Shown: one piece after another, positions 2,632-24,761 of the stretch
How positions within the stretch are numbered: the first letter of the stretch is position 1
Layout of the letters: the number at the start of each line of letters is the position of its first letter
From: Dehalococcoidia bacterium
Lineage (GTDB): Bacteria; Chloroflexota; Dehalococcoidia; SM23-28-2; RBG-16-64-32
Direction of reading: 5' to 3'
DNA length: 39,839 nucleotides
Assembly (NCBI GenBank): GCA_034411955.1
Contig: DAOUMF010000149.1
Coordinates: 1 to 39,839, forward strand
Program-made: the position numbers and the translations under genes
The notes under the pieces: generated by a model
Seen by the model: the letters and a program-made list of their open reading frames with translations, nothing else
Database searches by the model: none
Told to the model about the DNA's origin: nothing

Positions 2632-3342
2632 CTACCTTCCGCCGAGGCTCCAGAAGGGACCCGTCTTCCCCAGCTTCGCCAACGTCATCATCAACTCGGG
2701 CATAAACTGGGGCAGCCGCAGCAGGTAGTCGGGCTGGAGACGCTCGCGGAACAGGTCGGCGCTGAAAAGCGTGGCGTAGTCGGCGAGGGGCATGATGCCG
2801 TCGGCGCTCTCGGGGTCATACAGAGACCAGTTCTGGACGTGCTCTTCCGACCGGAAGAGGTTCATGAGGCTTCAAGCTCTCGCGATGTCTTCACGCCAGC
2901 GTGAGAAGGGAACATTGACGTGGCCGACGATGCCGGGTGGCGAGGCCTCCAGTATCTCACCATCGCGGATCCGCACCCGTATCGGTTCGTTGCAGTCCAG
3001 GCACGGGCAGTCGATCTGAACATGCTTGCCGGGGAAGAGCCAGCTGACTGCCAGCGATTCGAATCCTCACTGACCGTACCATTTCTGTTCGCCCTCCACC
3101 GAGATCAGGTAGTGAGTGGGGATGTTGGAGAACGGCGCGGGGGATGCAACGACGTCGGTGCCTGGGCTGAGCCAGAAGCCCGGGACCCTGCCATCACCGA
3201 GTTCGTGGAGCGCTTCCCGGGCGTCATCTAGGGAGATGCCTAGCTCGGTAGCGAGCTCTGTATAGTGCGGCGCTCGGCCGTCGCGCACGATGCCGCTCAT
3301 GGTGGCATGGTACATCCTTGCCAGGACCTGCGGGTCAGCCAT
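2632..3342 (-). CDS. MerB-like (alkylmercury lyase family) protein with N-terminal HTH; a single frame with two in-frame TGA codons (3069-3067 and 2874-2872), candidate selenocysteines
   Basis: ORFs 3067..3657(-), the unlisted stretch 2875..3066(-) and 2632..2865(-) are all in one frame, separated only by TGA. ATG at 3342 has AAGGAGG 7 nt upstream. By my recalled alignment to MerB, YAWC96ALD99TL aligns with WYGQ[TGA]GFESL, and SFC159CHVHFFAS..AEDW aligns with IARA[TGA]SLMNLFRSEEHVQNW. The TGA-TGA spacing is 65 codons against 63 residues between C96 and C159. Confidence 0.6.
2842..2859 (-). promoter_or_regulatory. Candidate SECIS-like hairpin downstream of the second in-frame TGA
   Basis: On the minus strand: CUCUUCC-GGUC-GGAAGAG, a perfect 7-bp stem with a GGUC tetraloop, starting 12 nt after the TGA. 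As I recall it, the E. coli fdhF SECIS apical loop is also GGUC, with the minimal stem-loop 11 nt from the UGA. Confidence 0.45.
3043..3055 (-). promoter_or_regulatory. Candidate SECIS-like hairpin downstream of the first in-frame TGA
   Basis: On the minus strand: GCUG-GCAGU-CAGC, starting 11 nt after the TGA. The loop carries G-U at positions 22-23 counted from the U of UGA (fdhF has G23 U24). The stem is only 4 bp, with an imperfect lower extension. Confidence 0.3.
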
Positions 3343-3523
3343 GGCGCACCTCCTTTGCCTGTGATGACATACCGACTGCGCCATTCTACCAGAGGCCGAG
3401 CCGATTGACACCTCGATCCGTCGTGCGCAATGATTGGCGCGCCAAGACCGCCCGGAGAGTCGGGCGAGGGCGTTTGGGCCCGCCATGTGGGTTCGGCGGA
3501 GATCGAGAATGGAGGGTGGCAAC

Positions 3524-4750
3524 ATGAGGCAGCCGCTTCTCAATGATCTGGTGACCGAAGAGGAGAGGTTGATGCAGCAGGCGGTGAGGGGCTTTGTGGA
3601 TGGCGAGATCATGCCTGTCCGCCAACAACTGGACGATGACAGGGACCATATTCTCATCGATGGGATATCGGAGAAGCTGAAGAACCTCGGTTTTCAGAAA
3701 AGCATAGTGCCGGAGAGATACGGCGGCCTGCCACAGAGATCGGTGGTTGGTACCAGCATCCTCATGGAGGAGATCGCCCGAGGAGATGTCGGACTGGCCG
3801 TGTCACTAGGGTGCACCGGCTGGTTCATCATGCCGGCGACCCTGGCCAACAATGAAGCGGTACTGCGCAAGGTTGCGGCGGTCTTCTGTGGCGACGAACT
3901 GCGCAGAGGATGCTTCGCCATGACAGAACCCGATGCGGGATGCGATGTTGAAAACCCTGCCCTGTACGGGAAGAAGATCTCTACCAGAGCCATCTTGGAT
4001 GGAGATGAATGGGTTCTGAACGGAAGCAAGAGGTTCCCCAGCAACGCGGGCATCTCCGCCTACTACTGTGTTGTCTCCACCACCGACCCCAATCTGGGAG
4101 ACGAGGGCATCGCATTGATCTACGTGCCTCATCCCAGCGAAGGGCTCTCATTCGGCAAGTTCGAGAACAAGGCGGGCCTGCAGGCGGACAGAAACTGCGA
4201 TATCTATCTGGACAACGTGAGGGTGCCAAAGGAGAACCGCGCCGCAGGCCCCGGAGAGGACGCCAGGCTACTCCACATTAACCTGACCATCGGCAGAATC
4301 GCGAGCGGTGCTCTGGCTGTGGGCGCGGCTCAGGGCGCTTTTGAGACGGTTCTCGAGTACACCGGGAACAGAGTCGTGGCTGGGAAGCCCATCCGGGAGC
4401 ATTCCATCTGTGCAGGGATGCTGGCCGATATGGCTGTTGGCATCGAGACCGCCAGGACGTACTACTTGACCGCGGCCTACATGTTCGACCGCCCCGAGGC
4501 CTATGGGCCTCCGGAGTCATCCGGCCACTTGTCCCGGGGCAGCATTGCCAAGGTCTACGGGACCGAAGTTGCCATCATGGTCACCAACAAGGCCATGGAG
4601 TTGATGGGCTCCTACGGCTACATGCGCGAGTACGACGTGGAGAAGTACTGGCGGGACTGCAAGGAGATCCAGCTCTGGGAAGGAGGAGCTCAACTGGGTA
4701 GATTCGATGTCGTTCGCGGATACTACGACTTCCAGATGGGCGACCGGTGA
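3524..4750 (+). CDS. Acyl-CoA dehydrogenase family protein
   Basis: ACAD-like sequence throughout (..CFAMTEPDAGCDV.., C-terminal ..IQLWEGGAQLGRFDV..). ATG at 3524 is preceded by GGAGGG. The ORF track start at 3434 is probably too far upstream. Confidence 0.85.
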   Translation: MRQPLLNDLVTEEERLMQQAVRGFVDGEIMPVRQQLDDDRDHILIDGISEKLKNLGFQKSIVPERYGGLPQRSVVGTSILMEEIARGDVGLAVSLGCTGWFIMPATLANNEAVLRKVAAVFCGDELRRGCFAMTEPDAGCDVENPALYGKKISTRAILDGDEWVLNGSKRFPSNAGISAYYCVVSTTDPNLGDEGIALIYVPHPSEGLSFGKFENKAGLQADRNCDIYLDNVRVPKENRAAGPGEDARLLHINLTIGRIASGALAVGAAQGAFETVLEYTGNRVVAGKPIREHSICAGMLADMAVGIETARTYYLTAAYMFDRPEAYGPPESSGHLSRGSIAKVYGTEVAIMVTNKAMELMGSYGYMREYDVEKYWRDCKEIQLWEGGAQLGRFDVVRGYYDFQMGDR

Positions 4751-4872
4751 ACCGGGGGCAACGGTTGCTGGCGGGCCGCTCTATCGATCGGAAGCGGAGG
4801 GGAGAGGCTCCGTAGCTGCACCGCCTGCGATCCGGATCCGCCCTGGCAGTCATCAGTGAAGGAGTACTGCTC

Positions 4873-6834
4873 ATGACCACCCGACTAGAAAGAACCGAGG
4901 CGGAGTTCAAGCACCTGTTCACTCCTTTGAAGATCGGCGCATTCACCGTCCGCAACCGCATCGTCAGCACCGCCCACCTCACCGGTTTCGCCGAGGGCGG
5001 CCTTCCAACCGAACGGCACCTGAACTACTGGGCGTCAAAGGCTAAAGGGGGCATCGGCCTCATCGTCACCGAGGATCAGGCCGTCCACCCCACTGCTGCC
5101 ACCGATCCATTCGTTATCCACGCCTACAGGGACGCATGCATCGAGCCCTTCAGGCGCATCGTCTCCGCCGTGCATGAGCACGGCGCCAAGCTAGTCGCCC
5201 CGCTATGGCACCCCGGCAGCGTTTTATACGGGGCGCGAGAGGGTAGCCTGCCCCTGTGGTCCAGCGGGGCCAACCCCGGCTCCTTCCACAGCGAGACCGC
5301 CCACGCCATGGAGCCCGAAGAGGTGAAGGAGGTGGTTCAGGCCTTTGGCGACTCCGCGCGGCGAATGCGAGAGGCCGGCCTGGACGGCGTAGAGCTCATG
5401 GGCACTCATGGCTTCCTGATCGAGCAGTTCATGTCCCCTCGCACCAACGAGCGCAGCGATGAATACGGGGAGACCGAGGAGAACCGCCTTCGCTTCATCC
5501 TGGAGGTGATCGACGCGGTGCGGGCTGATGTGGGTTCCGACTTCACCGTGGGCCTGCGGATTAGCGGTGACCAGTTCCAGGGAGGCGGCCTGGGCCTCCA
5601 GGACATGCTGAAGATCATGCCCAAGGTAACGGCTTCCGGCAAGCTGGACTACGTCAGCGTTACCGTCGGCGGCGGCGGCGCCCCCATCCCGCCCATGTAC
5701 ATGCCCGGCAGCCCCTTCGTCTACCTCGCTGCCGGGATCAAGGGCGTGGTGGACGTGCCCGTGTTCTGCGTCGGCCGCATCACCGACCCCGTAGTGGCCG
5801 AGGACATCCTGGCCAAGAACCAGGCGGACATGGTGGGCATGACCCGGGCCAACCTCTGCGACCCCGAGCTTCCCAACAAGGCGCGGGAAGGAAGGTTGGA
5901 TGAGATCCGCCGCTGTATCGGCTGCAACGAGGGCTGCTGGGGCCGTATCTACCACACCCTGCCCATCACCTGCGCCATTAATCCCAGCGCGGGGCGGGAA
6001 AAGGAGATGGAGATCACCCCCGCTCCCGTGAAGAAGAGGGTGATGGTTATCGGCGCGGGCATCGCCGGCATGGAAGCGGCGCGAGTGGCGGCGCTGCGGG
6101 GCCACTCCGTGTCTCTGTACGATAAGGACGACCAGTTGGGGGGCCAGCTCCAGATCGCGGCCAAGGCTCCCGGCCGGCAGGACATGGCCGAGCCCGTCCG
6201 CTACTACGAATATCAGTTCAAGCTATTGGGAGTCGATCTCCACCTGGGCTCGGCAGTGGACGAAAGGACCGTGGCGGAGGCTAACCCCGATGTCGTCATC
6301 GTGGCCACGGGAGGGCTCCCCGCCCCGGCCACGGTTCCTGGGGCGACCCAGCCCAACGTTGTGCAGGCCCGAGACGTGCTGGCGGGCAAGGCCGAGGCCG
6401 GCAAGAGAGTCGTCCTGTGGGCCCTGGACCGCGGAATGGAGGCCCTTACGACTGCCGATTTCCTGTCCGATCGCGGCTCTGAGGTGGAGGTTCTCGTGCC
6501 TTGGGGGGCGATAGCGGGCTTCCAGGTAGAGCCCCTGACCCTCGCCTTTGTGCTATCGCGGCTCTATACCAAGGGGGTTGCCCTGACCAACAGCATGCAG
6601 ATAAAGGTCATTCAGGAGAACACAGTGATAGCCGCCAACGTCCTCACCCGCCAGGAGCGCACCATCGAAGAAGTGGACACCGTTGTCGTCGCCCTGGGGA
6701 GTGTGGCCAATGATAGCCTGTACAGGGCCCTCAAGGGCAAAGTGCCAGAACTCCACGTTATTGGACAGGCCCTTGCCCCACGCAAGATGCTGGAGTCCAC
6801 CCTGGACGGACTTCGCGTCGGCAGGATGGTGTAG
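4873..6834 (+). CDS. NADH:flavin oxidoreductase / 2,4-dienoyl-CoA reductase-like protein (OYE barrel + Fe-S motif + FAD/NAD(P) domain)
   Basis: 653 aa. N-terminal OYE-like region (FTVRNRIVSTAH), a CIGCNEGCWGRI cysteine motif, then the Rossmann motif VMVIGAGIAGMEAA. AAGGAG RBS precedes ATG 4873. Confidence 0.85.
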   Translation: MTTRLERTEAEFKHLFTPLKIGAFTVRNRIVSTAHLTGFAEGGLPTERHLNYWASKAKGGIGLIVTEDQAVHPTAATDPFVIHAYRDACIEPFRRIVSAVHEHGAKLVAPLWHPGSVLYGAREGSLPLWSSGANPGSFHSETAHAMEPEEVKEVVQAFGDSARRMREAGLDGVELMGTHGFLIEQFMSPRTNERSDEYGETEENRLRFILEVIDAVRADVGSDFTVGLRISGDQFQGGGLGLQDMLKIMPKVTASGKLDYVSVTVGGGGAPIPPMYMPGSPFVYLAAGIKGVVDVPVFCVGRITDPVVAEDILAKNQADMVGMTRANLCDPELPNKAREGRLDEIRRCIGCNEGCWGRIYHTLPITCAINPSAGREKEMEITPAPVKKRVMVIGAGIAGMEAARVAALRGHSVSLYDKDDQLGGQLQIAAKAPGRQDMAEPVRYYEYQFKLLGVDLHLGSAVDERTVAEANPDVVIVATGGLPAPATVPGATQPNVVQARDVLAGKAEAGKRVVLWALDRGMEALTTADFLSDRGSEVEVLVPWGAIAGFQVEPLTLAFVLSRLYTKGVALTNSMQIKVIQENTVIAANVLTRQERTIEEVDTVVVALGSVANDSLYRALKGKVPELHVIGQALAPRKMLESTLDGLRVGRMV

Positions 6835-8214: not shown

Positions 8215-9111
8215 GTGAATCTCGCTGAACGCCTCGGCTTCGCCGCCGCCGACCGCGTGCTCATCCTCCACGCCGACGATGTTGCCAGCTCCCACGCTGC
8301 CAACGCCGCCGCCTTCCAGTGCTTGGAGGAGGGCAGTCTCACTTCCGGCTCCGTCATCGTGCCCGCCGCCTGGTTCCCGGAGGCCGCCGCATTCGCCCGC
8401 GAGCACCCCCAGGCGGACCTCGGCGTCCACCTGACCCTGACCTGTGAGTACGATTCGTGTCGCTGGCGCGCGCTCACCGACCGCTCGGCCGGCCCCGGCC
8501 TCTACGACGAAGAGGGCTACCTGTGGCGCACCGTCGAGGAGGCGGTCGAGCACGTCTCTGTCGAGGAGGCCGAGAGAGAGCTGCGCGCCCAGGTCGAGAC
8601 GGCCCTCGCGGCCGGCATCGATCTGACACACCTGGACACGCACATGGGCACGGTCGTTCACCCCAAGTTCATCGAGACGTACGTATCGCTTGGTTTAGAG
8701 TACGCTATCCCCATCTTCGCCTTCCGCCCGAACCCGGAACGGTTGCGTCGCTCCGGCCTGCTCGAATTCTGGGACGCCCTTGAGCCGCAGCTCAAGCGGC
8801 TGGACGACGCGGCCTTCCCCATCCTCGATCACATCCTGGTCAGCACCTTGGAGCACCCGCCGGAGCGGAAAGAGGCGTACTTCAAGGGCCTCTTCGCCGA
8901 GCTCAGGCCGGGCCTGACCCACTTCCTCATCCACCCGGCCGTGCTCTCTGACGAGGTGAGCGCGATGACCGAGAGCGCGCCCCTGCGCGCCAGGGATTAC
9001 GAGCTGTTCCGCGACCGCTCGATGGCCGAGGAGCTGGCGCGGCTTGGCGTGAACACCATCGGCTACCGCCCCATCCGCGACGCCTACCGCTCGGCCGCAC
9101 TTAGGGGCTAA
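8215..9111 (+). CDS. ChbG/YdjC-family carbohydrate deacetylase
   Basis: N-terminal ..VLILHADDVASSHAAN.. and ..GVHLTLT.. are typical YdjC-like metal-site regions. GTG start. Confidence 0.7.
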   Translation: MNLAERLGFAAADRVLILHADDVASSHAANAAAFQCLEEGSLTSGSVIVPAAWFPEAAAFAREHPQADLGVHLTLTCEYDSCRWRALTDRSAGPGLYDEEGYLWRTVEEAVEHVSVEEAERELRAQVETALAAGIDLTHLDTHMGTVVHPKFIETYVSLGLEYAIPIFAFRPNPERLRRSGLLEFWDALEPQLKRLDDAAFPILDHILVSTLEHPPERKEAYFKGLFAELRPGLTHFLIHPAVLSDEVSAMTESAPLRARDYELFRDRSMAEELARLGVNTIGYRPIRDAYRSAALRG

Positions 9112-9149
9112 CGATGCGGGCATAGTTGTCCTCAAATCCCGCGTCAGGC

Positions 9150-9174
9150 CAGCGCAACGAAAGCTGTTGCGCTG
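9150..9174 (+). terminator. Perfect 9-bp hairpin (CAGCGCAAC-gaaagct-GTTGCGCTG) between chbG-like and asd; possibly a terminator without a clear U-tract
   Basis: The inverted repeat was read directly from the sequence. Downstream sequence is CGTCTGGTCTAT, only weakly T-rich. Confidence 0.3.
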
Positions 9175-9263
9175 CGTCTGGTCTATCGAAGACAATCAAG
9201 GCAACCCTTGGCGCGGGTTCTGATGAGCAGCGACATTACTTGTAGCTATCCGGGGAGGTCTAG

Positions 9264-10325
9264 ATGTCCCTGAGAGTTACCGTCGTCGGCGTAGGCATGG
9301 TCGGCGAGGAGATCGTTTCTATCCTGCGAGAACGCGGCTTCCCGATGGAATGGCCCCCGCGGATCTGCGCCACGAGGGCGCGCAGCGAGACGCTTGCCGG
9401 TGAAGGCTTTCAGGTTGAGGAAACCAGCGATCAGTCTTTCGACGATGCGGACGTTGTCTTCTTCGCGGGAAAGGAAGGAGCCAAGGGGGCAAGCGTCCAG
9501 TGGGGCAAAAAGGCGGTCGATGCTGGTGCCGTCTGCGTTGACAACGGGGGCGACTTCCGTCTCGACCCCGCGGTGCCGCTAATCGTCCCCGAAGTGAACC
9601 TCGACGCGGCGACGCCCGAGACGCGCTTCATCGCCAGCCCCAACTGCTCAACGATCCAGATGGTGTTGGTCCTTCATCCCCTCCACCAAGCCGCGAGAAT
9701 CCGCAGGGTCGTCGTATCCACCTATCAGAGCGTATCGGGATGGGGTGTGAAGGCGCAGCAGGAGCTACTGGATCAAACCCCGCATGCCCTCAACTCCCTG
9801 GATAGTGTTCCCTTCGATCCGAGGGTGCTGGCCCGGCCGATAGCGTTCAACCTCTTCCCGCACATCGACAAGTTCACTGAGGACGGCTACACCAAGGAAG
9901 AGATCAAGATGGTGCTGGAGACCCAGAAGATCATGGGGGATGACACCATCAGGATAAGTCCTACCACCGTGCGGGTGCCGGTCTTGGTGGGGCATGGCGA
10001 GAGCGTCAATATCGAGACGGAAAAACACCTGAGCCCTGATGAGGCCCGGCAGATCCTATCGGCGACGCCGGGGATCGTCGTCATCGATGACCCCAACGAC
10101 GGCAACCCCCGAAATGACCCGCACGAGCGCACCTACCCCGTGCCCCTCGACGTGCGAAAACCCGAGTATCGGGACATGGTGCTGGTGGGGCGAATCCGGC
10201 AAGACCAGACCATCGAAAACGGGCTCAACCTGTGGTGCGTGGCAGACAACCTGCGAAAGGGCGCTGCCCTCAACGTGATTCAGATTGCCGAGGGGCTCGT
10301 CGAGCGAGGGAGCCTGAATCCGTAG
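9264..10325 (+). CDS. asd: Aspartate-semialdehyde dehydrogenase
   Basis: 353 aa with the active-site region ..FIASPNCSTIQMVLVLHPL.. GGGGAGG RBS precedes ATG 9264. Confidence 0.9.
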   Translation: MSLRVTVVGVGMVGEEIVSILRERGFPMEWPPRICATRARSETLAGEGFQVEETSDQSFDDADVVFFAGKEGAKGASVQWGKKAVDAGAVCVDNGGDFRLDPAVPLIVPEVNLDAATPETRFIASPNCSTIQMVLVLHPLHQAARIRRVVVSTYQSVSGWGVKAQQELLDQTPHALNSLDSVPFDPRVLARPIAFNLFPHIDKFTEDGYTKEEIKMVLETQKIMGDDTIRISPTTVRVPVLVGHGESVNIETEKHLSPDEARQILSATPGIVVIDDPNDGNPRNDPHERTYPVPLDVRKPEYRDMVLVGRIRQDQTIENGLNLWCVADNLRKGAALNVIQIAEGLVERGSLNP

Positions 10326-17319: not shown

Positions 17320-17432
17320 GTGCAGACCCGCTCACCCTGCGTGCCCGCCTCTGGCGGGAGCCCGAGCCGAAGGCGAGTCCGCCTCAGGCGTATGTCGAAG
17401 GGCGAGCGGCACAGCCTATATTCCCCTTCTCC

Positions 17433-17660
17433 TCAGTTGACGCGTCGGGCCGTGCCTAGGCTACCAGAACCAGTCGGCCTCGTTTTGCCGCTTTCCAGAT
17501 TCTGTGATCCGTTGGTGACTCTTCGGCCGTTCGGGAATAGGGAGAAGAACTCATCTCGGCTGGCTACCTTCTGCAAGTACCCACAGAACAGGCACCTGGC
17601 GACGTGAGCTGCGCTGAAGTATTCCAGGCTGTACCGGTCGCACTTCGGACACTTGTTCAT
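17433..17660 (-). CDS. Small Zn-ribbon protein, translationally coupled to the upstream kinase-deaminase gene
   Basis: MNKCPKCD-x15-CLFCGY (CxxC-x15-CxxC). ATG 17660 lies 10 nt after the upstream TGA (17673-17671), with GAGGAGGGAG spanning the gap. The C-terminal half is low-complexity, so the real end is uncertain. Confidence 0.55.
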   Translation of the reverse strand: MNKCPKCDRYSLEYFSAAHVARCLFCGYLQKVASRDEFFSLFPNGRRVTNGSQNLESGKTRPTGSGSLGTARRVN

Positions 17661-17670
17661 GGCTCCCTCC

Positions 17671-18939
17671 TCATACTTGCATGCCGTACTGCTTTTCCAT
17701 TTCCGTTTGGATAGGCGCGAAGAGCCGGTGGAAAGCCCTTGCCTTCACGCCCTCGAACAGTAGAACATCCCGTCCGGCCTTTTCCAGCAGGTCCGCGCCG
17801 TCGCCATCAGGGTAGGGCTCCACGTAGACCACCCGCTTGATTCCCGCGTACGTGATGGCTTTCGCGCAATTAAAGCACGGAAATGTCGTGGTGTACAGGG
17901 TGCAGTCGCGAAGATCCTTCCTGGGAGCTTGACGAATAGCGGCGTCCTCAGCATGTATCGCGGGGCACCACTGCATTCCCCGGTCTGGAAAGAGGACCTC
18001 CTTGAAACTGATCCTGCAGCCAGCGCAAATGTACGGTGCGGAGATCGAGTCCACTTTCTTGCCACACCGAGGGCAATCGGTTCCCTCTAGCGATTCCAGC
18101 TTGCCCAGCATCTTAGAGTCTTTCTCGCAGACTTCCCTTGGCTGACAGGGGTCTATCGGCGGGGGGTTCTCGTTGTACGCCACGGAAACGATGTTGTCGT
18201 CATCGTCAACGATAACTGCCCCCACTTGCCTCTTGATGCATCGTGACTGGGTCGCGTGTATGTATGCGACGCTCATCATGATCTCATCCACGCTCGGATA
18301 GCGCAGCCGCTCTTTGGTGATCAGACCCAAGTACGGTTCTGCACGTGACCTGATGACGCGAATGGCCTCTTGCCTTGAATGACAAAATTGCTGATTGCTG
18401 ATCACAATGTCGGCATCATCGACGCAGAGCTGCACTTGCTGGCCGTGCGGCAGGTCGGACTCGATCTGGTCTCTAATGTCATCCATCCGGAACTCTTCGT
18501 CCCCTAGCCCCCGCGCCTTGTAGTGCCGTTCCACGCGTTTCCATCGCTGATCAGAGGAGCATTGAACTGCCACCAAGAAGAAGCGCGGAAATGATTGCCG
18601 GAAGAAATCCACCTCCCCCAAATTCCTAATGCTGTCAAACACCACGCGGTTGCCGCTATTCTCTCGGTTAGCCAGGTCAACCGCCGCCCGTGCCAGAACG
18701 TCTCGGCCTTGCGAGGCTCTAAGCTCGTTGCCGAAATCTTGGAGTTCTCGCCGAGTGGGTTCCCTTTCAGCTTGCGCCGTGCTACCAATACTGCGCTTCC
18801 ACTCATTCTTGAGCGCGGTGGACAGAGAGATCACCGCGAAGCCGTCGTTGGGCTTCCTCGATCTCAGCGCCTCGCCAAGAGTGCTGCATCCGCTGCCGAA
18901 AGACCCCGTGAGACCAATAACCAATGCATCATTGTTCAC
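17671..18939 (-). CDS. P-loop kinase-like domain fused to a dCMP/cytidine deaminase domain (AvcD / dCTP-deaminase anti-phage defence architecture)
   Basis: N-terminus VIGLTGSFGSGCST (Walker A-like, with Cys in place of Lys). The C-terminus has the deaminase zinc motifs CPAIHAEDAAI (HAE) and TTFPCFNCAKAI (PCxxC). A CPRC-x12-CAGC Zn-ribbon is inserted between the deaminase N-terminal strand and the HAE motif. GTG 18939 has GAGGGGGAG 5 nt upstream. The region is visibly AT-richer than its flanks. Confidence 0.8.
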   Translation of the reverse strand: MNNDALVIGLTGSFGSGCSTLGEALRSRKPNDGFAVISLSTALKNEWKRSIGSTAQAEREPTRRELQDFGNELRASQGRDVLARAAVDLANRENSGNRVVFDSIRNLGEVDFFRQSFPRFFLVAVQCSSDQRWKRVERHYKARGLGDEEFRMDDIRDQIESDLPHGQQVQLCVDDADIVISNQQFCHSRQEAIRVIRSRAEPYLGLITKERLRYPSVDEIMMSVAYIHATQSRCIKRQVGAVIVDDDDNIVSVAYNENPPPIDPCQPREVCEKDSKMLGKLESLEGTDCPRCGKKVDSISAPYICAGCRISFKEVLFPDRGMQWCPAIHAEDAAIRQAPRKDLRDCTLYTTTFPCFNCAKAITYAGIKRVVYVEPYPDGDGADLLEKAGRDVLLFEGVKARAFHRLFAPIQTEMEKQYGMQV

Positions 18940-19197
18940 CGTGACTCCCCCTCGTCAACGACTCTAACGTCAGTTGTTTAGCACATTTGTACGATCACGT
19001 CAAGTGCTGGCTCCGTACAATCTAATCGGCGGGGCTTTCGCATGCTTTGCAGATATCCTAACTCATACCTCGTTCCCAAGTGAAACACTTCTTCCATGAG
19101 TGCGACGTCAGGATCTTTGTCGGACGCAGAGCCCCGCCATCCTCGCCTTCTGAACCAACCACTCCTTGGCTACGGCGAACCCTGCCGCCCCGTCCCC

Positions 19198-21107: not shown

Positions 21108-21938
21108 TTATTTCACGGTGGCGGCGGCGTTGCTAATCACCACGTCGCCGCGCTGCGTCTTGGCTTGGAGGACGATGCGACCCCCGCCCTCGTCCCACAT
21201 CTCCGTGATGACGTTGTCGCCCGGGAAGACGACGCCGGAAAACCGGACCTCCAGCCCCGTCATCCGAGCGGGGTCGTTGTCGCAGTACTCTCTGAGCACG
21301 GCGCGGCCGACGTGGCCGTATGTGCACAGCCCGTGCAGGATCGGCGTATCGTAGCCCGCCATCTTCGCGAACCCCGGGTCTATGTGCAGCGGGTTGCGGT
21401 CTCCGGACAGGCGGTAGATCATCGCCTGGATGGGCAGCGTCTGCATCTCCACGGTCTTGTCGGGTGCCCTTTCCGGCGCCTTGTTCCCGGCCTCCGGGCC
21501 GCGCTCCCCGCCGAAGCCGCCCGCCCCTCGCACGAACACCCCGGCCTCATTGGTGAACAGCACTTCGCCCTGCTCGTCCTTCGTTTCCGCCTCGACCACC
21601 AGCAGGGCGCCTTTGCCCTTGTCGTAGACGCCGGTCACCTTACCGGCCGTGGTCAGGTTCCCCTTCGGGGGAATCGGCTTGTGGAGCTTGATGCGCTGCT
21701 CGCCGTGGAGCAGCATCACGGGGTTTATCTCCACACTGGCGGCAAGCCCCATCATCGCTGGGAAACCCGGGATCACCGCGAACGTGGGGAGCACCTTCAG
21801 GTTGCGCTCGAAGACGAAGTCGAGCTCCGTGGCGCCCACGCCCACGGCGTACAGCATCACGTCGCGGTCGTCGTACTCGAAACTCGTCGGCGACAGCTCG
21901 ATACCTAAGGCTTCGGGAATAGCGACTCGTGTCGTCAT
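21108..21938 (-). CDS. MaoC-like (R)-specific enoyl-CoA hydratase, double hot-dog fold
   Basis: ..YRLSGDRNPLHIDPGFAKMAGYDTPILHG.. hydratase-2 motif. ATG 21938 has GGAGGAGGG upstream and lies 5 nt after the SDR stop. Confidence 0.85.
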   Translation of the reverse strand: MTTRVAIPEALGIELSPTSFEYDDRDVMLYAVGVGATELDFVFERNLKVLPTFAVIPGFPAMMGLAASVEINPVMLLHGEQRIKLHKPIPPKGNLTTAGKVTGVYDKGKGALLVVEAETKDEQGEVLFTNEAGVFVRGAGGFGGERGPEAGNKAPERAPDKTVEMQTLPIQAMIYRLSGDRNPLHIDPGFAKMAGYDTPILHGLCTYGHVGRAVLREYCDNDPARMTGLEVRFSGVVFPGDNVITEMWDEGGGRIVLQAKTQRGDVVISNAAATVK

Positions 21939-21943
21939 TGCGC

Positions 21944-22858
21944 CTACCCTCCTCCCAGGTGGGGGAAGATGCGGCCCATGCCCTCGGCGTTGGCGTTGGC
22001 GAACTCCTCGGCGCCGCTCATGTCCTTGATCTTCCCCAGGTTGTCGCGCACCTGCTCGATGTTGACCCCGCCGCTGGGGTCGAGGAAGACGCCTTTCCCC
22101 TCCACCACCGCCACCCGGCCGAAGTAGCCGCCGCCGGCCGACCATACGCTCCCTGTCTCCGTGCACTCCTCCGAGCAGAGGTAGGCCACCATCGGCGACA
22201 CCAGCTCTGGCACCAGCTTCTCCAGTGCGGTGGGCGGCATGATGTCCTCGGTCAGGCGTGAGGCCGCCAGGGGGGCGATGGTGTTGGCGAGGATGCTGTA
22301 CTTCTGCCCCTCTATCTTGATCACGTTCATCAGGCCCACCAAACCCATCTTCGCCGACCCGTAGTTGGTCTGGCCGAAGTTGCCAAACAGCCCTGCCGCC
22401 GACGTCGTGAACACAATGCGCCCGTAGCTGTTCTGCCGCATCACGCGAAGGGCTGGCTGGGTGACGCAGAAGGCGCCCCGCAGGTGCACCGCCTGCACCT
22501 TGTCCCAGTCTTCCGCTGTCAGGTTGTGGAAGGCGCGGTCGCGCAGGATACCGGCGTTGTTGACGAGGATGTCCACCTTGCCGTAGGCGTCCAGCGCCGT
22601 TTTGACGAGCGACTCTCCACCTTCCACCGTGTCCACGCCGTCGTAGTTCGCCGTTGCCTCCCCTCCGGCGGCCCGGATCTCCTCCACCACCTGGTCGGCC
22701 ATGGCGGTGCCGGCGCCGGTGCCGTCGCGGGCGCCGCCCAGGTCGTTCACCACCACCTTTGCGCCGCGCGAGGCGAGGAGCAGGGCGTGAGCCCGGCCCA
22801 ATCCACCTCCGGCCCCCGTCACGATCGCCACTCGGTCGTCAAACCGAACTTCACTCAT
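21944..22858 (-). CDS. SDR-family 3-hydroxyacyl-CoA dehydrogenase-like protein (MFE-2 N-terminal-domain-like)
   Basis: VAIVTGAGGGLGRAHALLLASRGAKVVVNDLGG, NNAG, and Y-x3-K (YGSAKMG). Together with the downstream MaoC gene it forms a split MFE-2-like pair. Confidence 0.85.
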   Translation of the reverse strand: MSEVRFDDRVAIVTGAGGGLGRAHALLLASRGAKVVVNDLGGARDGTGAGTAMADQVVEEIRAAGGEATANYDGVDTVEGGESLVKTALDAYGKVDILVNNAGILRDRAFHNLTAEDWDKVQAVHLRGAFCVTQPALRVMRQNSYGRIVFTTSAAGLFGNFGQTNYGSAKMGLVGLMNVIKIEGQKYSILANTIAPLAASRLTEDIMPPTALEKLVPELVSPMVAYLCSEECTETGSVWSAGGGYFGRVAVVEGKGVFLDPSGGVNIEQVRDNLGKIKDMSGAEEFANANAEGMGRIFPHLGGG

Positions 22859-23065: not shown

Positions 23066-23143
23066 GGTGGGCGTCGCCTAGCGGTCTAAGGCGCCAGGTT
23101 GTGGCCCTGGAGATCGAGGGTTCGAATCCCTCCGTCCACCCCA
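23066..23143 (+). tRNA. tRNA-His (anticodon GUG) with encoded G-1 and CCA
   Basis: Manual cloverleaf. G-1:C73. Acceptor stem GTGGGCG/CGTCCAC with one G-U pair. Anticodon arm CCAGG-TTGTGGC-CCTGG. T-arm GAGGG-TTCGAAT-CCCTC. CCA at 23141-23143. Confidence 0.9.
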
Positions 23144-24684: not shown

Positions 24685-24761
24685 GCCCCCGTAGCTCAAT
24701 TGGATAGAGCGCCTGGCTTCGGACCAGTAGGTTGTGGGTTCGAGTCCTACCGGGGGCGCCA
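24685..24761 (+). tRNA. tRNA-Arg (anticodon UCG) with encoded CCA
   Basis: Manual cloverleaf. Acceptor GCCCCCG/CGGGGGC. D-arm GCTC-AATTGGATA-GAGC. Anticodon loop CT-TCG-GA. T-arm GTGGG-TTCGAGT-CCTAC. Discriminator G followed by CCA. Confidence 0.88.

Follow-up and report, generated by a model that had tools for sequence, protein, structure and literature searches.

Nucleotide depletion by AvcD and the dCTP deaminases is an established defence, and those of these enzymes that have been tested protect against phage. AvcD was described by Hsueh et al. as a protein of 532 amino acids (aa), which is toxic unless it is inhibited by AvcI, a small RNA (sRNA) of 152–174 nucleotides (nt) encoded immediately 5′ of AvcD in the same operon. 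When a phage shuts off host transcription, the labile AvcI decays and AvcD is released. The sequence of the AvcI RNAs is not conserved even among the tested systems. Tal et al. described the dCTP deaminase as a single gene, the product of which has an N-terminal P-loop kinase-like domain and a C-terminal cytidine/deoxycytidylate deaminase domain and is longer than 350 aa. Here, we analyzed a 39,839-nt contig of a Dehalococcoidia bacterium (assembly GCA_034411955.1, contig DAOUMF010000149.1), which is referred to as the window. It carries a two-gene cassette, encoding a 422-aa AvcD-like deaminase and a 75-aa zinc-ribbon protein. The cassette had been singled out from the sequence alone as a putatively horizontally acquired islet with a putative anti-phage gene (the original prediction).

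The locus resembles AvcID (DcdV–DifV) of Vibrio cholerae VSP-1 and the homologues from V. parahaemolyticus, Proteus mirabilis, and enterotoxigenic Escherichia coli in the kinase-like/deaminase architecture and in the HAE and PCxxC motifs. Like AvcID, it is a mobile and patchily distributed two-component operon with a promoter-like element of its own, and its expected output would be the depletion of deoxycytidine (dC) nucleotides. It differs from AvcID in the length of the effector (422 versus 532 aa), in a Cys4 ribbon insert within the deaminase domain, in a predicted leader of only about 30 nt, and in the second component, which is a protein gene lying 3′ of the effector. The E. coli AW1.7 dCTP deaminase (Tal et al.) shares the kinase plus deaminase architecture, the length above 350 aa, and a Gly–Cys pair in the nucleotide-binding motif. 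In contrast, the AW1.7 enzyme is described as a single-gene system with a protein of 576 aa, and its N- and C-terminal tails are missing from the window protein. Stand-alone dCMP deaminases (human, S. mutans, phage T4, cyanophage S-TIM5, and the chlorovirus bi-DCD) gave the best structural matches for the C-terminal domain; these enzymes and the Sulfolobus protein SSO1041 are, however, single-domain metabolic enzymes with neither both domains nor the Cys-substituted P-loop. As in type II toxin–antitoxin systems, a small protein is encoded in the same operon and is co-conserved with the effector. MqsR–MqsA is a toxin-first pair of this type with a zinc-binding antitoxin. The analogy, which is not one of homology, lies in the effector coming first and in a small downstream protein, probably coupled in translation, with a Cys4 zinc module and a flexible segment. 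No sequence similarity or significant structural similarity to MqsA was detected, and the partner lacks a helix-turn-helix domain. No description of a protein partner for AvcD or dCTP deaminase was found in the searchable literature, in a search that was incomplete and is no proof of novelty.

Divergent Kinase–Deaminase Fusion

The deaminase gene (Table 1) has a GTG start codon, preceded by GAGGGGGAG, and its TGA stop codon occupies 17671–17673. Pfam located AAA_18 at residues 8–142 and dCMP_cyt_deam_1 at residues 217–373; thus, both domains of the architecture described by Tal et al. are present, in that order, in a protein of 422 aa. The AlphaFold model of the protein was confident and displayed two domains (pLDDT 92, pTM 0.90). 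In a Foldseek search, the C-terminal half matched dCMP deaminases (E about 1e-10), and the N-terminal half matched the adenylate-kinase-related SSO1041 with a target TM-score of 0.79 at 29% identity. No AvcD structure was found among the PDB entries searched. The Pfam domains and the predicted fold bore out the fusion of a P-loop kinase-like and a dCMP-deaminase domain that had been proposed originally, and the two open reading frames (ORFs) lie at the positions given, on the minus strand.

Table 1. Coordinates of the cassette and its features in the window.
Feature	Position	Strand	Remarks
Inserted cassette	17407–19187	minus	about 1.78 kb; holds the promoter-like block, the deaminase gene, and the zinc-ribbon gene; ends from homology breaks versus L093, L178, and L108
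Promoter-like block	18975–19003	minus	-35 TTGACG (19003–18998), 17-nt spacer, -10 TAAACA (18980–18975)
Deaminase gene, P-loop-kinase-like + zinc-dependent dCMP/dCTP-deaminase fusion (AvcD-like)	17671–18939	minus	422 aa
P-loop GSFGSGCS (residues 12–19)	18883–18906	minus	Cys18 replaces the Walker A lysine; C18 nearly invariant in 31 relatives
Cys4 zinc-ribbon insert in the deaminase domain (C289, C292, C305, C308)	18016–18075	minus	invariant in alignment A1
Catalytic zinc site (H329-A-E331, P354-C355-x-x-C358)	17866–17955	minus	invariant alignment columns
Shine–Dalgarno sequence GGAGGG of the partner gene	17665–17670	minus	directly after the deaminase stop; read from the sequence
Partner gene, N-terminal Cys4 zinc ribbon (C4, C7, C23, C26), short helix (residues 35–41), disordered tail	17433–17660	minus	75 aa, ATG start

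Profile searches yielded a graded picture of the family assignment. The PADLOC dCTPase profile PDLC02373 matched with E = 2.8e-91 and 305 bits, over model positions 151–521 of 630. The NCBIfam equivalog NF041025 ("anti-phage dCTP deaminase") scored 228.8 bits (E = 1.1e-67), and its curated cut-off of 400 was not reached. Relatives P0004, P0025, and P0039 had similar scores (219–248 bits) against NF041025, and the PGAP-named anti-phage dCTP deaminases of loci L085 and L086 attained 488 and 483 bits, respectively. These PGAP-named proteins lie on Photobacterium and E. coli plasmids and carry extra N- and C-terminal tails; the window protein aligned with them over 95% of its length at 27–29% identity. 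The shortfall relative to the NF041025 cut-off points to a separate, shorter subfamily rather than to a straightforward member. The AvcD/dCTP-deaminase assignment of the original prediction therefore held at the level of the superfamily, where the PADLOC match and the full-length alignment support it, and had to be narrowed at the level of the curated family.

The sequence motifs were in line with the superfamily assignment. Cys occupies the Walker A lysine position in 54 of the 66 genome loci with a recognized motif. In the AW1.7 enzyme, defence is lost upon mutation of the nucleotide-binding motif (G29A and C30A; Tal et al.), and these residues probably correspond to G17–C18 in the window protein. 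HAE and PCxxC were present in nearly all of the 80 genome loci. The Cys4 insert was missing in both L085 and L086. Its architecture, its motifs, and the PADLOC match place the 422-aa protein within the AvcD/dCTP-deaminase superfamily, as a divergent member. By analogy with the tested enzymes, it is likely to act as a nucleotide-depleting defence effector.

Zinc-Ribbon Partner

The ATG of the partner gene is located 10 nt past the deaminase TGA, and the placement of its Shine–Dalgarno sequence straight after that stop suggests translational coupling. Every close relative of the cassette has a 67-aa ORF at this position, with 58–67% identity over the whole ORF; the ORF of L002 displayed 72% identity over the conserved first 57 residues. 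The dN/dS values of the partner were between 0.05 and 0.16 (first 47 codons). The 75-codon ORF is a real gene. We searched for the association among the 76 genome loci with enough downstream sequence, which span bacterial and archaeal phyla, and a zinc-ribbon ORF was found 3′ of the deaminase in 37 of them, starting between -14 and +159 nt from the deaminase stop. With ORFs limited to 110 aa or less, the count was 34/76 versus 12/1318 (0.9%) for random anchors. The tight coupling anticipated by the original prediction is thus seen in the 10-nt gap, in the close relatives, and across the wider set of loci. The four Cys residues were invariant in 36 partners, which had no other invariant column. 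The divergences of partner and deaminase were correlated (Mantel r = 0.71), and none of 2000 permutations reached this value. A reverse search from the partner homologue P0144 led to a 386-aa kinase–deaminase, the stop of which overlaps the P0144 start.

The structure of the partner was modeled with an alignment of database proteins. The model comprised a three-stranded ribbon at residues 1–31 (pLDDT about 90) followed by a short helix; residues 49–75 formed a disordered tail. Structural comparison returned generic zinc ribbons only, the nearest including TFIIB and ribosomal proteins, and all E-values were above 0.1. The protein had no significant match in Pfam, PADLOC, or NCBIfam, and the family is unnamed in the databases searched; a single member matched a TFIIB-type zinc ribbon, and no other Pfam model was hit. 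An exhaustive profile search collected 381 partner-like representative clusters, and the best 150 of these were almost all stand-alone proteins of 39–130 aa. Longer homologues were considered as candidate fusions and were rejected, as they proved to be mis-called N-terminal extensions. A link between the Cys4 insert of the deaminase and the presence of the partner was likewise rejected, because the Firmicutes-type proteins lack the insert (motif search) and still have the partner.

Several variants of the partner were encountered. The Planctomycetota partners are long (193–196 aa; L036:2535–3125, L037:2733–3323, and L051:7185–7766) and combine the ribbon with a conserved C-terminal domain with the motif FDfGl.EPtfdLPdpDGRmiWkiGr, which had no Pfam match. 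In L048, a 133-aa ORF 26 nt past the deaminase stop corresponds to this C-terminal domain without the ribbon. A weak homologue, P0160 (53 aa), resides among SLFN_AlbA_2/HATPase_c_4, HipA_C, and AAA_14 genes (L176:1927–7696), away from any deaminase. Since it does not adjoin a deaminase, it was treated as a probably unrelated zinc ribbon; it is either that or the partner of a different effector.

Where the zinc-ribbon ORF is missing, the partner position is often taken by other ORFs that are short and hydrophilic, and at least two types have recurring motifs. These ORFs, directly 3′ of the deaminase, encode 52–79 aa. Type B (L021, L023, and L029) has the C-terminal end ...GPxxN[IV]YV[FY]G, and type C (L055, L062, L063, L074, and L083) has the motif G[AT]S[VI][RT][IMV][HR]xQ. 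Many Firmicutes zinc-ribbon partners end in strand-like short motifs that resemble those of types B and C.

Promoter-Like Block and Leader

The promoter-like block (Table 1) is positioned about 30 nt before the start codon of the deaminase, which would leave a 5′ untranslated region of only about 30 nt, with a predicted transcription start near 18968. Its spacer holds an invariant G.ACA.A.GTGCTA. The block was kept in six relatives, in intergenic DNA that is not alignable around it, and no sequence conservation was observed among the relatives upstream of it. The pattern occurs upstream of every close relative, at no other of 200 loci, and nowhere else in the window. A simple sigma-70 scan did not flag the block, which has TAAACA as its -10 element, and the promoter assignment is based only on conservation. 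We consider the block a predicted promoter that travels with the cassette.

We looked for an AvcI-like RNA in the same region. Rfam at the gathering threshold reported no RNA upstream of the deaminase and matched only two distant tRNAs. The fold of the 258 nt upstream was no better than that of shuffled sequences (z = -0.71). Given these results, the lack of conservation, and the short predicted leader, an AvcI-like RNA at this position appears unlikely. In the plasmid-borne loci with PGAP-named deaminases, the deaminase is preceded by a "hypothetical protein" coding sequence of 56–60 codons in the same orientation (L085:2645–2815 and L086:705–887). These occupy the position of the AvcI sRNA in the tested systems and may be mis-annotated RNA genes.

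Insertion Site and Mobility

To define the ends of the insert, we compared the window with contigs that have no cassette at this site. The gene adjoining the insert belongs to the NAD_binding_2/NAD_binding_11 dehydrogenases (3-hydroxyisobutyrate-dehydrogenase-like, hereafter HIBADH-like), and a metagenome search with its protein returned 80 loci. The deaminase was absent from all 80, and is therefore not a conserved housekeeping gene. In L093, which has 90.6% DNA identity to the window, the HIBADH-like gene and a short-chain dehydrogenase (SDR) gene are 166 bp apart without the deaminase. Its homology to the window extends up to 19188 and resumes at 17349 according to blastn, and inspection of the junction extended the shared sequence to 17406. 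A contig of another metagenome-assembled genome (L178, GCA_034408935.1) has, in this order, a second SDR gene (SDR2), MaoC, 2-hydroxyacid dehydrogenase, and HIBADH-like genes, a gap of 217 bp, and the SDR and CMD genes, again without the deaminase. The breaks fall at 19187/19188 and 17406/17407, and the boundaries, which had been left undefined by the original prediction, can now be placed at 17407 and 19187.

The same slot holds other cargo elsewhere. In L108, a sister strain with a HIBADH-like gene 94% identical in DNA, it contains a PIN-domain gene and two genes of unknown function. In this cargo (638–2312), the PIN-domain protein is 189 aa long and the other two proteins, which had no PADLOC or Pfam match, are 158 and 222 aa; the cargo may be a toxin–antitoxin or defence module. 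A DinB-family gene, with or without other genes, occupies the slot in L095, L098, and L099. The 217-bp spacer of L178 (20074–20290) retains about 150 nt of the L108 cargo, namely the 3′ end of the PIN gene, so this site is a deletion remnant and not the pristine state. The cassette-free site of L093 (2067–2220) contains a 51-bp direct duplicate of the HIBADH-like 3′ end, which brings with it a second stop codon. About 70 nt with a GTCGGGGTCT/AGACCCCGAC hairpin separate the copies, and the duplication resembles a scar left by a previous insertion or excision aimed at the end of the gene. Cassettes 62–80% identical to that of the window sit in unrelated neighborhoods, next to DsbA/DUF421 genes (L002) and to Iso_dh (L089).

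The composition of the insert also differed from that of its surroundings. Its G+C content was 0.565 versus 0.653 for the remainder of the window; in 500-nt windows, the values were 0.55–0.58 between 17.5 and 19.2 kb and 0.66–0.72 on both flanks. The contrast was sharpest at the third codon positions, where the G+C content (GC3) was 0.676 for the deaminase and 0.697 for the zinc-ribbon ORF, and 0.80–0.95 for ten neighboring genes. The lower G+C content that the original prediction had noticed was thereby confirmed, as was the adjacency of the HIBADH-like and SDR genes when the islet is absent, with the gaps found in L093 and L178. Its claim of horizontal acquisition gains from the foreign composition, from these near-empty slots, and from the lack of the deaminase in all of the HIBADH-like loci. 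The segment is almost certainly a horizontally moving, acquired cassette. No integrase or recombinase was found in or beside it, and no convincing flanking repeats or flanking phage genes were detected in the window, which agrees with what had been reported originally for integrases and repeats.

The neighboring genes are metabolic and encode a CMD-family protein, an SDR, the HIBADH-like dehydrogenase, a D-2-hydroxyacid dehydrogenase, a MaoC hydratase, and a second SDR. For the MaoC-like hydratase, the longest ORF (21108–22166, 352 aa) shares about 220 nt with the SDR gene upstream of it; as the MaoC product of the relative L178 is called as 276 aa, translation probably begins near 21938 instead. 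An MgtE gene located about 4 kb from the cassette is flanked by tRNA-His(GTG) (23067–23143) and tRNA-Arg(TCG) (24685–24761). Neither of them adjoins the insertion, and they are therefore not the attachment site of the cassette. The named relatives of the MgtE protein, with 64–82% identity, all come from Dehalococcoidia metagenome-assembled genomes, which makes the host a probable member of this class. Two more stretches with lower G+C content (3001–5000 and 9001–10000; 0.60–0.61 versus the window mean of 0.65) were observed.

Distribution of the Relatives

More than 1460 relatives of the deaminase were scored. The genome matches came from Bathyarchaeia, Thermoplasmatales, DPANN archaea, Dehalococcoidia, Actinomycetota, Nitrospirales, Planctomycetota, Acidobacteriota, Bacillota, and others, with a patchy distribution over many bacterial and archaeal phyla. 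Among viral sequences, the matches mostly contained the deaminase domain without the kinase domain (18 of the 20 IMG/VR viral-contig matches and 302 of the 303 GenBank phage records). One IMG/VR viral contig of 23 kb (L181, 4983–6373) encodes a 386-aa deaminase and a 76-aa zinc-ribbon ORF, the ATG of which overlaps the deaminase stop. This pair suggests that the cassette is spread by prophages.

We inspected the genomic surroundings through the two nearest genes only, which gave 115 immediate neighbors at 61 loci, with no genome-wide baseline. These neighbors include mad2 (4), mad8 (2), SspH (2), HerA (2), type I restriction–modification genes, PD-T4-6, and integrases or transposases. For comparison, a preferential location near defence systems corresponds to a defence score above 0.33 in Tal et al. 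The flanks in the window itself are metabolic, while the sister strain L108 has the PIN-domain cassette in the same slot.

Discussion

With these results in hand, we propose, as the somewhat favored overall explanation, that the locus is a two-gene nucleotide-depleting defence cassette in which the small protein controls the enzyme. A self-contained mobile cassette with its own promoter would have landed in a variable slot between two conserved dehydrogenase genes. By analogy with the enzymes that have been tested, the deaminase, once activated, would act on dCTP or dCMP and deprive a replicating phage of dC nucleotides. This action would require the kinase-like domain with the Gly–Cys P-loop as well as the zinc-dependent deaminase domain. 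The zinc-ribbon protein would be a control subunit in place of AvcI, most likely a labile inhibitor that needs continuous resupply. Phage-induced shut-off of host gene expression would then lead to the loss of the inhibitor and to the release of the deaminase. Among the possible modes of control, the inhibitor role is favored because AvcI offers an analogy, the tail of the partner is disordered, and other small proteins can apparently take its place; even so, we assign it to the partner only tentatively. As the predicted leader seems to leave no room for an AvcI-like RNA, the simplest interpretation would be that control has passed to the protein encoded 3′ of the deaminase. In a more general form, which we regard as possible and slightly more speculative still, there may be a protein-controlled branch of AvcD in which the zinc-ribbon protein 3′ of the deaminase replaces AvcI as a labile inhibitor or infection sensor, with unrelated short proteins doing likewise in other clades.

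Several observations weigh against this proposal. Because the protein falls short of the NF041025 cut-off, the function is transferred across 27–29% identity. Since the AvcI RNAs have no conserved sequence between the tested systems, an unrecognized RNA may have escaped detection. About half of the related genome loci have no recognizable zinc-ribbon ORF, so that the partner is not obligatory for the fold. No deaminase–partner fusion occurred among the best 150 of the 381 partner-like clusters, and hence there is no direct support for a physical contact. Finally, defence genes were a minority among the immediate neighbors that we inspected.

The absence of the partner from so many loci fits an accessory sensor better than an essential antitoxin. 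On this account, the effector and its defence role would be the same, and the zinc-ribbon protein would be either a sensor or activator that recognizes a protein or nucleic acid of the phage, or a transcriptional autoregulator with the G.ACA.A.GTGCTA element as its target. The invariance of the promoter spacer among the relatives is unusual for a spacer and resembles that of an operator, and the nearest folds of the partner, none of them significant, are zinc ribbons associated with nucleic acids or RNA polymerase, such as TFIIB and the ribosomal proteins. However, a ribbon that spans about 30 residues and has no helix-turn-helix does not make a strong candidate for sequence-specific DNA binding, and the promoter element occurs only in the closest clade, while the partner extends across phyla. 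Furthermore, the short hydrophilic non-zinc proteins of the other clades are what would be expected of interchangeable inhibitors. We judge a sensing or autoregulatory role to be rather unlikely. The locus also has features of an addiction module: the operon is compact, contains two genes with a promoter-like element of its own, moves between genomes, and shares its slot with the PIN-domain cassette of L108. A selfish toxin–antitoxin pair, persisting because its loss is harmful and having no role in phage defence, is nevertheless improbable; tested relatives of the effector protect against phage, and copies adjoin MADS, Ssp, and restriction–modification genes, one of them being on a viral contig. 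Addiction and defence are, moreover, not mutually exclusive roles.

Both the sequence and the fold of the deaminase domain by itself are similar to those of cellular and phage dCMP deaminases, and the JGI annotation of the relatives is "deoxycytidylate deaminase". These points would suit a housekeeping bifunctional enzyme of pyrimidine salvage, joining a dCMP deaminase to a nucleotide kinase, or a leftover gene of phage nucleotide metabolism. This explanation comes close to being refuted by synteny, as the closest relatives of the host have no deaminase at this site; the foreign composition and the replacement of the Walker A lysine by Cys are further arguments against it, as are the lack of the kinase domain in nearly all of the viral matches and the absence of flanking phage genes. 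We regard it as very improbable, and the two-gene defence cassette remains the explanation that we prefer.

Conclusions

The sequence comparisons indicate that a large, phylogenetically broad subfamily of kinase–deaminase fusions falls short of the curated annotation threshold and is accompanied by a small partner protein. The slot between the HIBADH-like and SDR genes, of which near-empty, PIN-domain, and deaminase states were all seen in metagenomes, appears to be a hotspot for defence or toxin–antitoxin cassettes in an uncultured lineage. If the proposal is confirmed, many systems, among them those of archaea and Dehalococcoidia, are overlooked in annotation with the curated NCBIfam model, and the branches differ in how the enzyme is restrained and released. 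The pair would then offer a simple model, made up of two proteins, in which to ask how such effectors detect an infection. Should the protein-controlled branch exist, the pairing of one nucleotide-depleting effector with small, exchangeable "safety catches" would have happened repeatedly across bacteria, archaea, and prophages.

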